64,000 nucleotides of DNA from Patescibacteria group bacterium. Lineage in GTDB: Bacteria > Patescibacteriota > Microgenomatia > UBA8517. This document shows, in pieces, positions 13,463-27,928 of this stretch; the first letter of the stretch is position 1, and every line of letters begins with the position of its first letter. The position numbers were made by a program, and so were the translations under genes. Where the stretch lies: NCBI GenBank assembly GCA_036381415.1, contig DASVCV010000001.1, forward strand, positions 1,411 through 65,410, read 5' to 3'. The notes under the pieces were generated by a model. It saw only the letters and a program-made list of their open reading frames with translations. It did no database searches and was not told the origin of the DNA.

Positions 13463-13882
13463 TTATTTCTTTCTTTCACAATCAACACACCTTGTTGCTT
13501 CTGGATAAATAATAAGTCTGTCTGTGTCAATCATTTTTCCACAGTTTTCGCAGATTGCGTACTTGCCTATTTTTACTCTTGTTAGGGCTTTTCTTGTTTG
13601 AATTATTCTTCTTTCTATCTGATCTTTGGCAGCTGAAGTCAAGGCATGGCCAAACTGTTCTTCTGCTTCTGTGTCAGGGGCTGCATTATCAGATACTCTT
13701 GCCTCAGAGGAAAAAGGATCTGATTCTTCTATTTCTTTTTTATTTTTTTCCAGTTTTTTAAGTCTATCTGAAAGGAAAGTTCTAACAGGAGCAAGAACTG
13801 ATGCAGGAAAATGAATCTCCTCCACTCCGTCCTTTTTGGGAAGATTTACTTTTGTTTTTTGTTTTGATTTAGCTTTAGTCAT
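13463..13882 (-). CDS. DksA/TraR-family C4 zinc-finger protein
   Basis: C-terminal CENCGKMID...CVDCERKK four-Cys finger after a coiled-coil region. Confidence 0.65.
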   Translation of the reverse strand: MTKAKSKQKTKVNLPKKDGVEEIHFPASVLAPVRTFLSDRLKKLEKNKKEIEESDPFSSEARVSDNAAPDTEAEEQFGHALTSAAKDQIERRIIQTRKALTRVKIGKYAICENCGKMIDTDRLIIYPEATRCVDCERKK

Positions 13883-15667: not shown

Positions 15668-15751
15668 GCCGGGGTGCTGAAATGGTATACAGAATAGTCT
15701 CAAAAACTATTGAGGCCTCGCCTCGTGAGGGTTCGAGTCCCTCTCCCGGCA
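15668..15751 (+). tRNA. tRNA-Leu (anticodon CAA), class II with long variable arm
   Basis: Acceptor stem GCCGGGG/UCCCGGC. D-arm with GG. Anticodon stem ATAGT/ACTAT, loop CTCAAAA. Variable-arm hairpin GAGGC-CTC-GCCTC. T-arm GAGGG TTCGAGT CCCTC. Discriminator A. No encoded CCA. Confidence 0.85.
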
Positions 15752-15754
15752 CAA

Positions 15755-16438
15755 ATGCCTGCTCATAGAATTACTAATAAGATAAGGTGGTCTTCAGACG
15801 TCGCATATGCCGTAGGGCTGATAACTACTGATGGAAATTTATCTTCTGATGGAAGGCACATTATTTTGACTTCTACTGATAAACAATTGCTCAAGACTTT
15901 TGCATATTGTCTTAATAAGAAAAACAAAATAAGCATCAATCCGCCTAGTAGCATAGGAAGAAAAATTGCTTATCATATCCAAATTGGTGATACTACTCTG
16001 TATGAATGGCTGCAGAAATTAGGTATAACTCAAAGAAAATCACTAACAATTGGGGAGCTCCAGATTCCCAAAAAATTCTTAAGAGATTTTGTTCGAGGTC
16101 ATTTAGATGGTGATGGCAGTATTGTGCATTACATAGATAAATACAACACCTATCTAAATTCCAGATATGTATACGACAGACTATTTGTTTTTCTCATGTC
16201 TTGTAGCAAAAACCATATTGAGTGGCTTAGAGAAAAAATTCAAGAGGACCAGGGATTACATGGCAGTTTTCTTATTCAAAGATCTAAGTACCAGCTAGGC
16301 AAATCTTTTAGCTACAGAATAAAATTCAGCACAAAAGAAGCGAAAAAACTTTTGAATTGGATTTATTACAGAAATAATCTACCTAAACTTGAGAGAAAGT
16401 TTAAAATTGCACAACCATTTTTGAGGGTATCTAACTGA
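15755..16438 (+). CDS. double-motif LAGLIDADG homing endonuclease, free-standing, 4 nt downstream of tRNA-Leu
   Basis: Two LAGLIDADG motifs: AYAVGLITTDGNL and VRGHLDGDGSI. The ORF track starts earlier at 15710, inside the tRNA; the first ATG is at 15755. Confidence 0.8.
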   Translation: MPAHRITNKIRWSSDVAYAVGLITTDGNLSSDGRHIILTSTDKQLLKTFAYCLNKKNKISINPPSSIGRKIAYHIQIGDTTLYEWLQKLGITQRKSLTIGELQIPKKFLRDFVRGHLDGDGSIVHYIDKYNTYLNSRYVYDRLFVFLMSCSKNHIEWLREKIQEDQGLHGSFLIQRSKYQLGKSFSYRIKFSTKEAKKLLNWIYYRNNLPKLERKFKIAQPFLRVSN

Positions 16439-20489: not shown

Positions 20490-21749
20490 ATGAGTAAGAT
20501 GAGCAAGCAAGATTTGCAAACACTTAAGGGTTTTAGAGACTTTTTGCCTTCTAAAATGGTTGTCCGTAATGAGGCCATAAGGAGGCTAAGGATTGTGTTT
20601 GAAAAATATGGATTTGAAGAACTTATAACCCCTGCTATTGAATCTCAAGGAGTGCTTCTTGGTAAATATGGAGAAGAAGCTGAAAAATTAATGTATCTTT
20701 TTGAGGACCAGGGAAAAAGAAAAGTCGGTTTGAGGTATGATCTTACTGTGCCACTTGCGCGTGTTGCTGCGACTTATCCAGATTTACCCAGACCTTTTAA
20801 GAGATATCAGATTCAGCCTGTTTGGCGAGCAGAAAACACTCAGAAAGGGCGCTATAGAGAATTTTATCAGTGTGATATTGATACAATCGGCTCAACATCT
20901 CCATTGGCTGATGCTGAAATATTAGCTGTTATTTATGAGTCCTTAGGGGCATTAGGATTTCCTTCTTTTGTAATTAAGATCAATTCAAGACAAGTGCTTT
21001 TTGAAAATCTCAAAAAGGCTGGAGTTAAGGAAAGTATGTGGCTTACTACCCTTTCTTCAATTGATAAGCTGGATAAAAAGACAAAAGAAGAAGTAGAAAA
21101 GGAATTAGAAAAGAAAGGACTTATGAAAGATGAAATTGAAAAAGTGTTTGCTAATTTTGAAAAGGCAGTTCCTGATGCATTTTTAGCAAGTGTCATGGAA
21201 TATGCAAATCAGATGGGAGTAAAGGATACAATTTTAAAGTTTGATCCTTATTTATCCCGCGGTCTTGACTACTACACAGGACCAATTTTTGAATCTGTTG
21301 TTACTGAGCCAAAGATTGGATCACTTACTGGCGGAGGAAGATATGACAAGCTTCTTAAAACTTTGGGTGGACCAGATCTTCCTGCAACGGGAACAACTAT
21401 TGGACTAGATAGAGTTTGTGATGTTGTAGAAGAATTAGATCTTTGGAAAGATATGAAAAAAACTACCACAAGTGTACTTGTAACAGTATTTTCCAAAGAA
21501 CTACTTTCAAAGTCACTTGAGATTGCAACAGTACTTAGGCAAAGCGGAGTAAATACTGAGGTATATCCTGAGGAAAATACGAAGCTAGAAAAACAACTTA
21601 AGTATGCTGATAAAAAGAATGTGAGCTGGGTTGTTATTATTGGCCCTAATGAAATAGAAGAGAATAAAGTTGTACTTAAGAATATGAGTGATAACACTCA
21701 AGAAATACTTGCCACTGATGAAGTCATTAAAAAACTTGAGAAACTTTAA
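20490..21749 (+). CDS. hisS: histidyl-tRNA synthetase
   Basis: LKGFRDFLP motif, class II core, C-terminal anticodon-binding domain. Confidence 0.9.
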   Translation: MSKMSKQDLQTLKGFRDFLPSKMVVRNEAIRRLRIVFEKYGFEELITPAIESQGVLLGKYGEEAEKLMYLFEDQGKRKVGLRYDLTVPLARVAATYPDLPRPFKRYQIQPVWRAENTQKGRYREFYQCDIDTIGSTSPLADAEILAVIYESLGALGFPSFVIKINSRQVLFENLKKAGVKESMWLTTLSSIDKLDKKTKEEVEKELEKKGLMKDEIEKVFANFEKAVPDAFLASVMEYANQMGVKDTILKFDPYLSRGLDYYTGPIFESVVTEPKIGSLTGGGRYDKLLKTLGGPDLPATGTTIGLDRVCDVVEELDLWKDMKKTTTSVLVTVFSKELLSKSLEIATVLRQSGVNTEVYPEENTKLEKQLKYADKKNVSWVVIIGPNEIEENKVVLKNMSDNTQEILATDEVIKKLEKL

Positions 21750-21758
21750 GCATTATAG

Positions 21759-22688
21759 ATGTCAAAACGCCGCCTTGCCGCCCTTTTTTTGTTTTTAGTA
21801 GTAACAATTATTTCAGCAGTTGCTGGAATTGTTATTAAATTTACTTTAAGTGGAATTTCTACTCTTCCCTTTTTAACTTACAGGTTTGCAATTTCATCAG
21901 TTGTTGCCATACCCTTTTTACTTTTTTACAAAAAGAGTTTTACTGGGCTAAGGCCTTTTAGCAAAAATGTTTCCACAATATTAGAGCTATTTATTTTTTC
22001 CTTTATCACTTCTACCCTTGCTCTTGGTCTTTTGTTTCTTGGTCTTGAAAAAACAACAGTCCTGGATATGACTCTTATTACCTCTATTGGTCCACTTGTA
22101 ATTGGAGCTGCTGGAGCAATGTATTTAAGAGAGCATATTACAAGCAGAGAAAAAGTTGGAATGGTCATAGCATTTTTGGGGACAGTTCTAGTTTTAGTTG
22201 AACCAATAATCAGGCTTCATGATGGAAAACATCAGGTTTTAGGAAATGTAATCCTAATCTTATATGTATTTTCAACGGCAGTTTCTGCGGTATTAGGCAA
22301 ACGCCTTCTTCAAAAAAGAGTAAGTCCAATAACTATGACAAACTCTATTTTCATAGTTGGGTTTTTGACAATTATTCCTGTAGCTTTATATACATATGGA
22401 TTGCCAAACCTTGTACAGACAGTTACTACTCTTTCCATGCCCTACCAACTGGGAGTTTTATTTATGGCACTAGTTTCAGGAAACTTAGCATACACTCTTG
22501 GAAATAAAGCACAAAAATCAATTGAGATTAGCGAAGCTTCGCTTTTTACATACTTAATACCAATTTTTACAGCTCCCCTGGCCATAGTGTTTTTGGGAGA
22601 AAAATTAACCCCAGTACTTATAGTTAGCTCTGTAATTGTACTGGCTGGGGTTGTAATTGCGGAATACAAGAAAAAAAGGTATAATTAG
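21759..22688 (+). CDS. EamA/DMT-family transporter
   Basis: Ten TM helices in two EamA-like halves. Confidence 0.7.
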   Translation: MSKRRLAALFLFLVVTIISAVAGIVIKFTLSGISTLPFLTYRFAISSVVAIPFLLFYKKSFTGLRPFSKNVSTILELFIFSFITSTLALGLLFLGLEKTTVLDMTLITSIGPLVIGAAGAMYLREHITSREKVGMVIAFLGTVLVLVEPIIRLHDGKHQVLGNVILILYVFSTAVSAVLGKRLLQKRVSPITMTNSIFIVGFLTIIPVALYTYGLPNLVQTVTTLSMPYQLGVLFMALVSGNLAYTLGNKAQKSIEISEASLFTYLIPIFTAPLAIVFLGEKLTPVLIVSSVIVLAGVVIAEYKKKRYN

Positions 22689-22692
22689 CCTC

Positions 22693-23010
22693 ATGCAAAC
22701 AAAGATTCACCCAAAATGGTATCCAGAAGCAAAGGTAACTTGTGCCTGTGGAAACACCTTTACAATTGGTGCAACAATGCCTGCGATCTCAGTTGAAATA
22801 TGCTCAAATTGTCATCCTTTCTACACTGGACAGATGAAATATTTAGGAGTTGCTGGACGTGTGGATGCCTTTAGAGCCAAGCAAAAAGGAGCTTCCAAGA
22901 AAGTACTTTCAAAGAGTGCAAGGCGTGAAGAGAAAAGAAAGAAAAGATTAGAGGCAGATTTGGAAAGACCAGAATCACTTGCTCAACTTCGCAAAAAGAC
23001 AAGCCACTAA
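22693..23010 (+). CDS. rpmE: 50S ribosomal protein L31 with about 35-aa Lys/Arg/Glu-rich C-terminal extension
   Basis: MQTKIHPKWY...CACGN...CSNCHPFYTG zinc-ribbon L31 core. Confidence 0.85.
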   Translation: MQTKIHPKWYPEAKVTCACGNTFTIGATMPAISVEICSNCHPFYTGQMKYLGVAGRVDAFRAKQKGASKKVLSKSARREEKRKKRLEADLERPESLAQLRKKTSH

Positions 23011-23727
23011 ATGGATAAGCAAAGCTTGGCCAGCCCGGCTGGTAATCAAATAGCCTACCTTGAAATCCGCGGTGCTACAGGCGGAGATGAAGCCAAATTA
23101 TGGGGAAGAGACTTGCTTAGGATGTACCTTCGTTTTGCTGTTAAAAAAGGTTGGAAAACAGAGTTGGTTGCTGAAAATACTATCAGATTTAGCGGATTGG
23201 GTGTTTTTGATGCTTTACAAAATGAATCAGGAGTTCATAGAGTACAAAGAGTTCCTACTACTGAAAAAAGAGGAAGAATTCATACTTCTACTGCTACTGT
23301 AGTAGTGTTACCTGAAATTAAGGAAAGTGATGTTACTATTAGGCCTGAGGATTTAGAGTGGCAGTTTTTTAGAGCTGGTTCACAAGGGGGTCAAAATGTT
23401 AATAAAGTTTCAACTGCTGTAAGACTTACTCATAGACCAAGTGGTCTTGTTGTTACTGCTCAAACTGAGAGGTTTCAGGAACAAAATAGAAAGATAGCCC
23501 TAGACTTACTTAGATCCCGACTTTGGGAAAAAGCAGAAGCTGAAAAAGAAAAAACAGTTGCAGGATACAGAACTGCAGTGGGGCGCGGAATGAGATCTGA
23601 GAAAATTAGAACATATAATTTTCCTCAGAACAGAGTTACAGATCACAGAATTGGAAAGTCTTGGGGAAACCTGGATGCAGTTGTTGATGGAGACCTATCA
23701 AGAATTGTTGATTTTAAAAAAGAGTAA
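23011..23727 (+). CDS. prfA: class-I peptide chain release factor, RF1-like, lacking N-terminal domain 1
   Basis: Matches RF1 from about residue 100: YLEIRGATGGDEA, codon-reading PTT (PxT-like), GGQ motif, C-terminal TYNFPQNRVTDHRI. Confidence 0.8.
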   Translation: MDKQSLASPAGNQIAYLEIRGATGGDEAKLWGRDLLRMYLRFAVKKGWKTELVAENTIRFSGLGVFDALQNESGVHRVQRVPTTEKRGRIHTSTATVVVLPEIKESDVTIRPEDLEWQFFRAGSQGGQNVNKVSTAVRLTHRPSGLVVTAQTERFQEQNRKIALDLLRSRLWEKAEAEKEKTVAGYRTAVGRGMRSEKIRTYNFPQNRVTDHRIGKSWGNLDAVVDGDLSRIVDFKKE

Positions 23728-24142
23728 TATACCCTTTTGAGTCAACTCTCAAAACAATGTTGGCAGAATCTAGAACAAGCGTTTCTTTTTCTACTTCAAA
23801 ACCAGTTATACCCTTAATAGAACCTGCTAAGCTTTTTTCTAAGTATGGGTCTTTCTTAAAAAAGGAAGTGTTAAATCCTAAATTAACATAGTCATCAAAG
23901 CCATCACTTTCAATAGTCAGCGTTGTAGTTCCTTCAGGAGTTTTCCAGGTAATTTTAAAGCCTTGATTGGATGTTTCTTCGATAGTTGCATCTTTGACAA
24001 TTCTAGCCAAGTCTCTATCATTTTCAAATACTGGAATGTTATCAAAATTTTGACTTAACAGGAGGTCGAAAGCTTCCATTCCCTTACTTATATCTTCATC
24101 AGTTAATATTTCATGTATTTCTTCTTTAATTTCTTTTGCCAC
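23714..24142 (-). CDS. hypothetical protein
   Basis: ORF only. Confidence 0.4.
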   Translation of the reverse strand: MAKEIKEEIHEILTDEDISKGMEAFDLLLSQNFDNIPVFENDRDLARIVKDATIEETSNQGFKITWKTPEGTTTLTIESDGFDDYVNLGFNTSFFKKDPYLEKSLAGSIKGITGFEVEKETLVLDSANIVLRVDSKGYITLF

Positions 24143-26842: not shown

Positions 26843-27088
26843 TTAAAGGTTTCCTTTAAAAGGAAGAAGTCCTAAATGCCTTGCTCTTTTAACTGCTTGA
26901 GATGTACGTCTTTGGTGCTTGGCACAAAGACCTGAGCGGGATCTTCCTAGAAGTCTTGCTCTGTCTGTAACAAATTTAGCTATTTCATCAGTTGCTAAAT
27001 AATCTGGAGTTTTACCTGTTTCACAGAAATAGCAGACATTTGAAATTGGTCTTCTGTTTACTTTTCTTCTTGTTTGTTTTTTAGGCAT
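26843..27088 (-). CDS. rpsR: 30S ribosomal protein S18
   Basis: CYFC...DYLATDEI...RLTGL-like S18 core. Confidence 0.9.
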   Translation of the reverse strand: MPKKQTRRKVNRRPISNVCYFCETGKTPDYLATDEIAKFVTDRARLLGRSRSGLCAKHQRRTSQAVKRARHLGLLPFKGNL

Positions 27089-27117
27089 ATATTTATTACT
27101 TAATTAATTTAAATTTC

Positions 27118-27618
27118 TTAAAAAGGTATATCTTCATCTGAGATATCATCTACTGTTTGCTTTTTGCTTTCTTCTTTTTTGGCTGGTTTTTCAGCTTTTG
27201 CTTTGTGTGGCTGTGGAACTTGTGATTCCTCTCCTACATTAGAAGCTACCCCAAGGTCTTCTGGAACACCTAAGTCATCTGATCTTCTGCCATCTAATAC
27301 AAGCATATCTGAAATTACTATTTCAGTTGTTGTTCTTTGGGCTCCATCTTGTCCTTGCCAATTTCTTGTTTGAAGACGTCCTTCAACATATGTTCTACTT
27401 CCCTTTTTAAGCATTTTGCTGCAGATTTCAGCTAATTTATCCCAGGCAACTATTCTATGGAATTCTGCTTCATCTTTCTGATCTCCGCTTTCTGTCTTCC
27501 ATTGTCTATTTGTTGCAATTGAGAATGTACAAACTGCAGTTCCTGAAGGAGTGTAGCGTAATTCTGGATCACGGGTTAAATTCCCAATAATTAAAACTTT
27601 ATTTAGACTTCTTGCCAT
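27118..27618 (-). CDS. ssb: single-stranded DNA-binding protein
   Basis: OB-fold N-terminus and acidic C-terminal DDIPF tail. Confidence 0.95.
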   Translation of the reverse strand: MARSLNKVLIIGNLTRDPELRYTPSGTAVCTFSIATNRQWKTESGDQKDEAEFHRIVAWDKLAEICSKMLKKGSRTYVEGRLQTRNWQGQDGAQRTTTEIVISDMLVLDGRRSDDLGVPEDLGVASNVGEESQVPQPHKAKAEKPAKKEESKKQTVDDISDEDIPF

Positions 27619-27928
27619 TTGTTTTGCCTTTCTTAACTTTAGGTTCTTCGGTTCTTACCAATAAGTACCTTAAAAGATTATCATCAAGATTGAGTTTTGA
27701 CAATAAACCTTTTGTGCCTATTCCTTCTAAACTTAGCTTCAAATTAAGAAAATAACCAGTATTTGCCTTCTTAATAGTATAGGCTAGCTCTTTCTCTCCT
27801 AATTCTTCTATTTTGTCTACTTTTCCTTTAAAACTTGCAACAAGCTTTTCAAGGCTTTCGGTAACAGATTTTCTCTTGGCAGGAGTTAATTTCCCGTCAA
27901 CTACTACTGTTAATGTGTAATTATTCAT
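27599..27928 (-). CDS. rpsF: 30S ribosomal protein S6
   Basis: S6 fold. Conserved rpsF-ssb-rpsR gene order. Confidence 0.85.
   Translation of the reverse strand: MNNYTLTVVVDGKLTPAKRKSVTESLEKLVASFKGKVDKIEELGEKELAYTIKKANTGYFLNLKLSLEGIGTKGLLSKLNLDDNLLRYLLVRTEEPKVKKGKTNGKKSK

Follow-up and report, generated by a model that had tools for sequence, protein, structure and literature searches.

[quoted passage not shown] To our knowledge, class-I factors devoid of this domain are otherwise known only as specialized paralogues or as laboratory constructs. PrfH (RFH; TIGR03072) is such a paralogue; it combines a codon-recognition-like domain with the GGQ domain, its decoding motifs are altered, and its gene always follows rtcB and is translationally coupled to the gene upstream. 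The ArfB, ICT1 and C12orf65 proteins possess the GGQ domain, use a C-terminal tail and act without RF3, but they have neither domain 2 nor domain 4 and do not recognize codons. Burroughs and Aravind (2019; PMC6514570), who surveyed the diversity of release factors broadly, name PrfH and ArfB alone as reduced forms in bacteria. The laboratory constructs are truncations of E. coli RF1 and RF2 at the N-terminus that comprise domains 2–4 only. In the account that Baranov et al. (2006; PMC1586002) give of the work of Mora et al. (2003), codons are recognized and peptides released without the help of domain 1, but RF3 is not stimulated in its absence; the truncated factors retain codon-specific release and can no longer stimulate RF3, and truncated RF1 works in vivo. 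Full-text literature searches yielded no description of a housekeeping RF1 without domain 1, in keeping with the preliminary description of the locus reported here, according to which class-I factors of this kind are otherwise known as paralogues.

The gene of interest lies in a stretch of 64 kb of Patescibacteria (CPR) DNA (hereafter the window), which has a low GC content (33–40%) and a dense content of housekeeping genes (Table 1). The same protein is present at NCBI as HEX6976754.1, encoded on a 137-kb contig, under the label 'peptide chain release factor-like protein [Patescibacteria group bacterium]'. It matches the Pfam family RF-1 over profile positions 2–116 of 116 (E = 2.9e-36), and the Pfam family PCRF over profile positions 95–194 of 194 only (E = 9.9e-32). 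The NCBIfam RF1 equivalog NF001859 aligns with it over positions 103–336 of 347 at 300.2 bits (cutoff 400), and TIGR00019 scores 287.6 bits (cutoff 423); both values fall below the equivalog cutoffs because one third of the model is missing from the protein. The RF2 model reaches 200 bits, and that of PrfH only 63.5 bits (cutoff 166.7), a match that is confined to the GGQ domain. Among structures in the PDB, E. coli RF1 (residues 105–341) and T. maritima RF1 (residues 79–318) are matched with E-values between 1e-56 and 1e-72, and the identity over domains 2–4 to the solved RF1 structures of T. maritima, T. thermophilus and E. coli amounts to 50–60%. The AlphaFold model of the protein has a pLDDT of 77, with residues 1–9 disordered, and the PDB structures closest to it are those of ribosome-bound, open RF1 (TM 0.67–0.68).

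All the elements by which canonical RF1 reads stop codons and releases peptides are retained: GxGGxE, the glutamine of RVQRVP, the PxT tripeptide, HTS, GGQ and the RTYNFPQ.RVTDHR region. The protein also possesses the RF1 residues of the switch region. An alignment of 40 homologues revealed no variation in P82 and T84 of the PTT tripeptide, in G126, G127 and Q128, or in the decoding residues GxGGxE, the glutamine of RVQRVP and the threonine of HTS. RF2, in contrast, carries an SPF motif, and the ArfB model matches only amino acids 106–140 of our protein (53.8 bits, cutoff 100), in which domains 2 and 4 are present. Judged by these scores and motifs, the open reading frame encodes an RF1-type factor that is neither an RF2 nor a PrfH protein. 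The preliminary description had called the protein an RF1 that aligns with RF1 only from about residue 100, that keeps PTT and GGQ and that has lost the whole of domain 1, and each of these points is borne out by the profile, PDB and alignment data. The gene is located next to rpmE, as in canonical RF1. A further difference from canonical RF1 had escaped it: domain 2 lacks 10 residues, the counterparts of residues ~146–156 in the E. coli protein, and its β-hairpin is thereby shortened.

Table 1. Coordinates of features of the rpmE-prfA region and of other genes discussed in the text
Feature	Position in the window	Strand	Basis or remark
-10 box (TATAAT), 7 nt 5' of the rpmE ATG	22680..22685	+	likely promoter, predicted from sequence
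rpmE, ribosomal protein L31 (105 aa, four-Cys type)	22693..23010	+	Pfam Ribosomal_L31 E = 3.6e-24; NCBIfam L31 E = 1e-24
C-terminal extension of L31 (~40 aa)	~22891..23007		ends in the motif RPxSLxQLR
prfA variant (RF1 with domains 2, 3 and 4 only; 238 aa)	23011..23727	+	profile, PDB and AlphaFold matches
10-residue deletion site, aa 55–57 (E-N-T)	23173..23181	+	alignments
PTT tripeptide, the RF1 'PxT' stop-codon anticodon motif, aa 82–84	23254..23262	+	within the conserved VHRVQRVPTTEKRGRIHTST
GGQ catalytic motif, aa 126–128	23386..23394	+	sequence and alignment
Convergent ORF (142 aa)	23714..24142	-	no Pfam match
hisS (419 aa)	20490..21749		with anticodon-binding domain
S6-SSB-S18 cluster	26843..27928	-	followed by a CtpA-like S41 protease gene
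tRNA-Leu(CAA)	15668..15752	+	
ORF (242 aa)	15710..16438	+	LAGLIDADG homing-endonuclease domain

In the protein, no more than about 12 residues lie ahead of the first domain 2 strand, and the matches to the RF1 models begin at position ~103; domain 1, which counts among the defining features of the RF1 family, is therefore absent. This architecture is not restricted to the window. Among the 81 loci that were read (L001 and 80 others), the open frame ahead of domain 2 spans only 6–37 codons in 15, which together with the window gives 16 short forms. Group A consists of Microgenomates (the window, L001–L003, L007, L013, L014 and L057), while group B is Parcubacteria-like (L016, L023, L026, L042, L046, L068, L069 and L080), with a Liptonbacteria MAG and a chromosome of 829 kb among its members; the short RF1 proteins of group B have 239–267 amino acids, and P0128 and P0133 also belong to this clade. 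In the release factor tree, clade A is the sister of rpmE-linked RF1 proteins of other Microgenomates with an intermediate length of ~296–333 amino acids, and group B is nested among full-length RF1 proteins of Parcubacteria. Groups A and B were monophyletic in none of 100 bootstraps, and the domain 2 hairpin is kept in B but lost in A. Taken together, the separation of the two groups, the nesting of B and the difference in the hairpin argue for at least two losses of domain 1, with that in the Parcubacteria-like group apparently being independent of that in the Microgenomates.

The mid-length RF1 proteins of L004–L006, L008–L012 and L015 (~296–316 amino acids) share with the protein from the window the phylum-level lineage, the linkage to rpmE and, as discussed below, the tail of L31. 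They differ from it in that the C-terminal half of domain 1, the equivalent of E. coli residues ~62–105, is kept, and this half-domain in related Microgenomates suggests that domain 1 was eroded stepwise. The hairpin deletion is common to clade A and most of the mid-length proteins; the Daviesbacteria-type loci L009 and L011 do not have it. Two further types of candidates were rejected during these comparisons. Long proteins that begin at domain 2, of which P0168 and others had emerged from the representative search, are frame-shifted or partial high-GC gene calls, and P0121 and P0125 carry internal tandem duplications of parts of the RF1 sequence that look like assembly artefacts.

The stop codons used in the window bear on the function of the short factor. 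Its 76 open reading frames end in TAA (53), TAG (12) or TGA (11); TAG terminates at least nine Pfam-confirmed genes, including dnaB, an xerC-like gene, ychF and cysS, and the frames ending in TGA include recR and dnaX. The use of both TAG and TGA as stops implies a standard code, a need for RF1 activity and an RF2 that is encoded elsewhere. The 64-kb window contains no rtcB, prmC, prfB or prfC gene, and rtcB was not found in the flanks of the relatives either. A tblastn search of the window with the short factor returned only its own gene, and no second release factor was found in the 81 loci. The gene rpmE is situated directly upstream of the release factor gene in the window and in 35 of the fetched loci from many bacterial phyla, so that the short gene occupies an orthologous locus. 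Considering this ancestral rpmE-prfA locus, the missing rtcB and the TAG stops, the protein is most likely the housekeeping factor for UAA and UAG. We therefore consider it probable that the open reading frame is the orthologous and functional prfA gene of this organism, encoding domains 2–4 only, and that the ancestor of a large Woesebacteria-like clade of the Microgenomates lost domain 1 by deletion. There is also a good chance that the genome encodes no RF1 other than the short factor.

The alternative that survives best, although we regard it as unlikely, is that of a specialized paralogue, PrfH-like or of the rescue type, with a full-length prfA gene located elsewhere in the genome. The class-I factors without domain 1 that are known to date are indeed such paralogues (PrfH, ArfB; PMC1586002, PMC6514570), NCBI labels the protein 'release factor-like', and the search for release factors covered 64 kb of this genome and up to 20 kb per relative. 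However, the RF1 score of 300 bits exceeds that for PrfH by far, the protein is not an ArfB, and it possesses the RF1 decoding residues at positions where PrfH has changed ones. A PrfH-like paralogue beside rtcB had been proposed as an alternative in the preliminary description; the locus contains no rtcB gene, and it is the ancestral rpmE-prfA site that is occupied. Moreover, the sister relationship to rpmE-linked RF1 proteins with half of domain 1 fits vertical erosion.

The gene prmC encodes the glutamine methyltransferase of release factors and is found directly downstream of prfA in many bacteria; its absence from this position in the window is another difference from canonical RF1 loci. 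With E. coli PrmC as the tblastn query, no such gene was detected in the whole 64-kb window or, up to a distance of 10 kb from prfA, in any of the short-form loci or in the mid-length loci L004–L006, L008, L010 and L012. It directly follows prfA in the Daviesbacteria-type loci (L009, 10725–11222; L011, 10692–11270). A metagenome scan for RF2 with an AT-biased SPFD...RRHTSF pattern yielded 120 loci, apparently mostly of marine low-GC and Firmicutes type, and none of them looked CPR-like. No truly short RF2 located away from a contig end was present among these 120 loci; the apparent short RF2 at L189 is a frame-disrupted gene.

Alternatively, prfA might be split, with a separate small protein encoded elsewhere supplying domain 1 in trans. 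Domain 1 is a helical bundle with a flexible attachment (PMC1586002), a property that favors this possibility. A profile HMM built from 64 domain-1 sequences was used in a six-frame search of the 64-kb window and the 15 other short-form loci, and all signals had E-values above 0.3; no open reading frame resembling domain 1 was found in any of them. A genuine L31 gene fills the DNA upstream of the short gene and leaves no space in which a domain 1 could be concealed. No pseudogenized or split domain 1 is thus present in the neighborhood of the gene. Since related lineages possess progressively shorter proteins and not split ones, we judge a domain 1 provided in trans to be very unlikely.

The rpmE and release factor genes are closely connected. 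The TAA stop codon of rpmE (23008–23010) directly adjoins the ATG of the release factor gene (TAAATG), both genes are in the same frame, and no Shine-Dalgarno motif precedes this ATG; translational coupling is consequently the simpler reading, and the synthesis of the release factor probably depends on the translation of rpmE. Upstream of rpmE, GGTATAAT is unchanged in the window, L001, L002 and L003. TATAAT-like -10 boxes are located 6–10 nt before many other start codons of the window as well, for instance those of the genes at 13882, 15610, 27928, 29271, 32145, 32723, 47317 and 50463, and few genes (13 of 53) have a Shine-Dalgarno-like motif. The conservation of GGTATAAT and the many similar boxes elsewhere suggest that leaderless mRNAs may be common in this genome, and the putative -10 box in front of rpmE is likely the promoter of a leaderless rpmE-prfA transcript. 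Rfam searches detected no leader RNA near rpmE, the sole Rfam match in the window being a tRNA-Leu.

The gene order hisS-EamA-rpmE-RF-(htrA)-ctpA-S18-SSB-S6-ychF is maintained in relatives. The HisS protein encoded in the window has 419 amino acids and an anticodon-binding domain; syntenic hisS genes have been called with ~296–302 codons and no HGTP_anticodon domain listed (L001, 7742–8650; L083, 7021–7911; L085, 7838–8737). On the other side, the convergent open reading frame downstream of prfA overlaps the end of the latter, including its stop codon, by 14 nt, and L085 contains a frame of 141 codons at the equivalent position.

L31 itself has a C-terminal extension of ~40 amino acids, which is conserved, together with the motif (R/A)P.(T/S)L.(E/D)(L/M), in 17 Microgenomates proteins (the window, L001–L006, L008–L012, L015, L050, L083, L085 and L087). 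Every sampled member has a basic tail of 30–45 amino acids that ends in (R/A)P.(T/S)L.(E/D)(L/M)(R/L). The tail is present alike with RF1 proteins that keep half of domain 1 and with those that have none of it.

The preliminary description correctly reported that rpmE and the release factor gene are in one frame across a single TAA; the importance that it implied for this junction was not sustained, as both frame and spacer vary among relatives. Readthrough of the TAA might be envisioned to generate some L31-RF1 fusion protein, in which the L31 tail replaces domain 1 or tethers RF1 to the ribosome. Besides the single stop codon without a spacer and the conserved L31 tail, this idea draws on the in-frame TAAATG junction that is likewise found in L085, on the in-frame arrangement in L001 and L087, and on a survey of 36 junctions (the window and 35 of the loci L001–L081), in which 21 rpmE-prfA pairs across phyla share a frame versus 12 expected, although these loci are not independent and close relatives flip frame. 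In 18 of the 21 same-frame pairs, a single stop codon separates the two genes. However, in the closest relative, L083 (94% amino acid identity), rpmE and the release factor gene overlap by 17 nt in different frames, which leaves a programmed L31-RF1 product unsupported, and in L002 and L003 the two genes are likewise in different frames, separated by 88 nt and 22 nt, respectively. TAA is also the commonest stop codon of the window, and the alignment of the junctions lacks a conserved recoding context. The L31 tail accompanies RF1 proteins with half of domain 1 as well, and it does not resemble domain 1 (HMM E = 7.8; hhalign probability 0.1%, E = 0.54). These hhalign values equally fail to support a shift of the gene boundary by which the tail would have been derived from domain 1. 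On the ribosome, L31 is located far from the L11 stalk. The in-frame junction looks coincidental, and we consider a functional fusion highly improbable.

Whether the truncation is clade-wide was a question raised in the preliminary description, and the database homologues answer it in the affirmative: the 120 best homologue clusters all have 225–245 amino acids and 73–100% identity to our protein. These clusters stem from Woesebacteria and other Microgenomates, and include the complete genome CP066686.1 (1.08 Mb) and contigs of 0.69–0.95 Mb. In comparisons with L083 and L085 (94% and 84% identity), the dN/dS ratio of the release factor gene is 0.05–0.09, and the short RF1 is under strong purifying selection across the clade. 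While the window comes from a metagenome-assembled contig, the notion that an assembly or sequencing error (the latter put forward as a refutation by the preliminary description itself) or pseudogenization has deprived prfA of its 5' part has a practically negligible probability and is already refuted by the comparative data, given a like architecture in more than 120 independent clusters from many samples, closed genomes among them, the low dN/dS ratio, and an intact L31 gene that directly adjoins the start codon. In contrast to the E. coli laboratory constructs, which likewise consist of domains 2–4, the truncation described here is a natural and ancient one that extends across a clade and is subject to purifying selection.

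We suggest that the short prfA product would act in translation termination as follows. Since the pertinent residues are conserved and the structures are established, domains 2 and 4 would use the PxT pocket to decode UAA and UAG, with domain 3 placing GGQ into the peptidyl-transferase center for the hydrolysis of peptidyl-tRNA, as in canonical RF1. Without domain 1, neither the contact to the L11 stalk nor the stimulation of RF3 would be possible; termination would hence proceed without RF3-assisted recycling, and the factor would leave the ribosome spontaneously and thereby recycle itself. Slow-growing CPR cells with small genomes might well be able to afford such a spontaneous release. The gene would be co-transcribed with rpmE from the -10 box placed for a leaderless mRNA, and would be translated by termination-reinitiation at TAAATG.

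On balance, we favor the wider view that large CPR lineages terminate translation with class-I factors shorn of domain 1, in a manner that inherently depends on neither RF3 nor the L11 stalk, and that genome reduction has repeatedly removed this accessory module: in Woesebacteria-like Microgenomates, independently in Parcubacteria-like bacteria, and in part in lineages with half-domain intermediates. If this is true, the module that contacts RF3 and L11 would be dispensable in living cells and not only in vitro, and RF3 should be absent or irrelevant in these lineages. They would also offer a natural system in which to ask what domain 1 contributes and whether RF2 took the same path, and their minimal natural RF1 proteins would lend themselves to structural and kinetic work on the recruitment and recycling of the factor. 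From a practical point of view, annotation pipelines may score such genomes as devoid of prfA, because the short RF1 proteins fall below the equivalog cutoff and are labeled 'release factor-like'; such missed calls could bias marker-gene sets and estimates of genome completeness.

Two further observations were made in the window. The gene rplI (L9) usually completes the S6-SSB-S18 operon; here, the gene of a CtpA-like S41 protease follows the S6-SSB-S18 cluster in its place. OP11/Microgenomates are reported to lack L9. Finally, the tRNA-Leu(CAA) gene extends into the 5' end of a 242-codon open reading frame with a LAGLIDADG homing-endonuclease domain.
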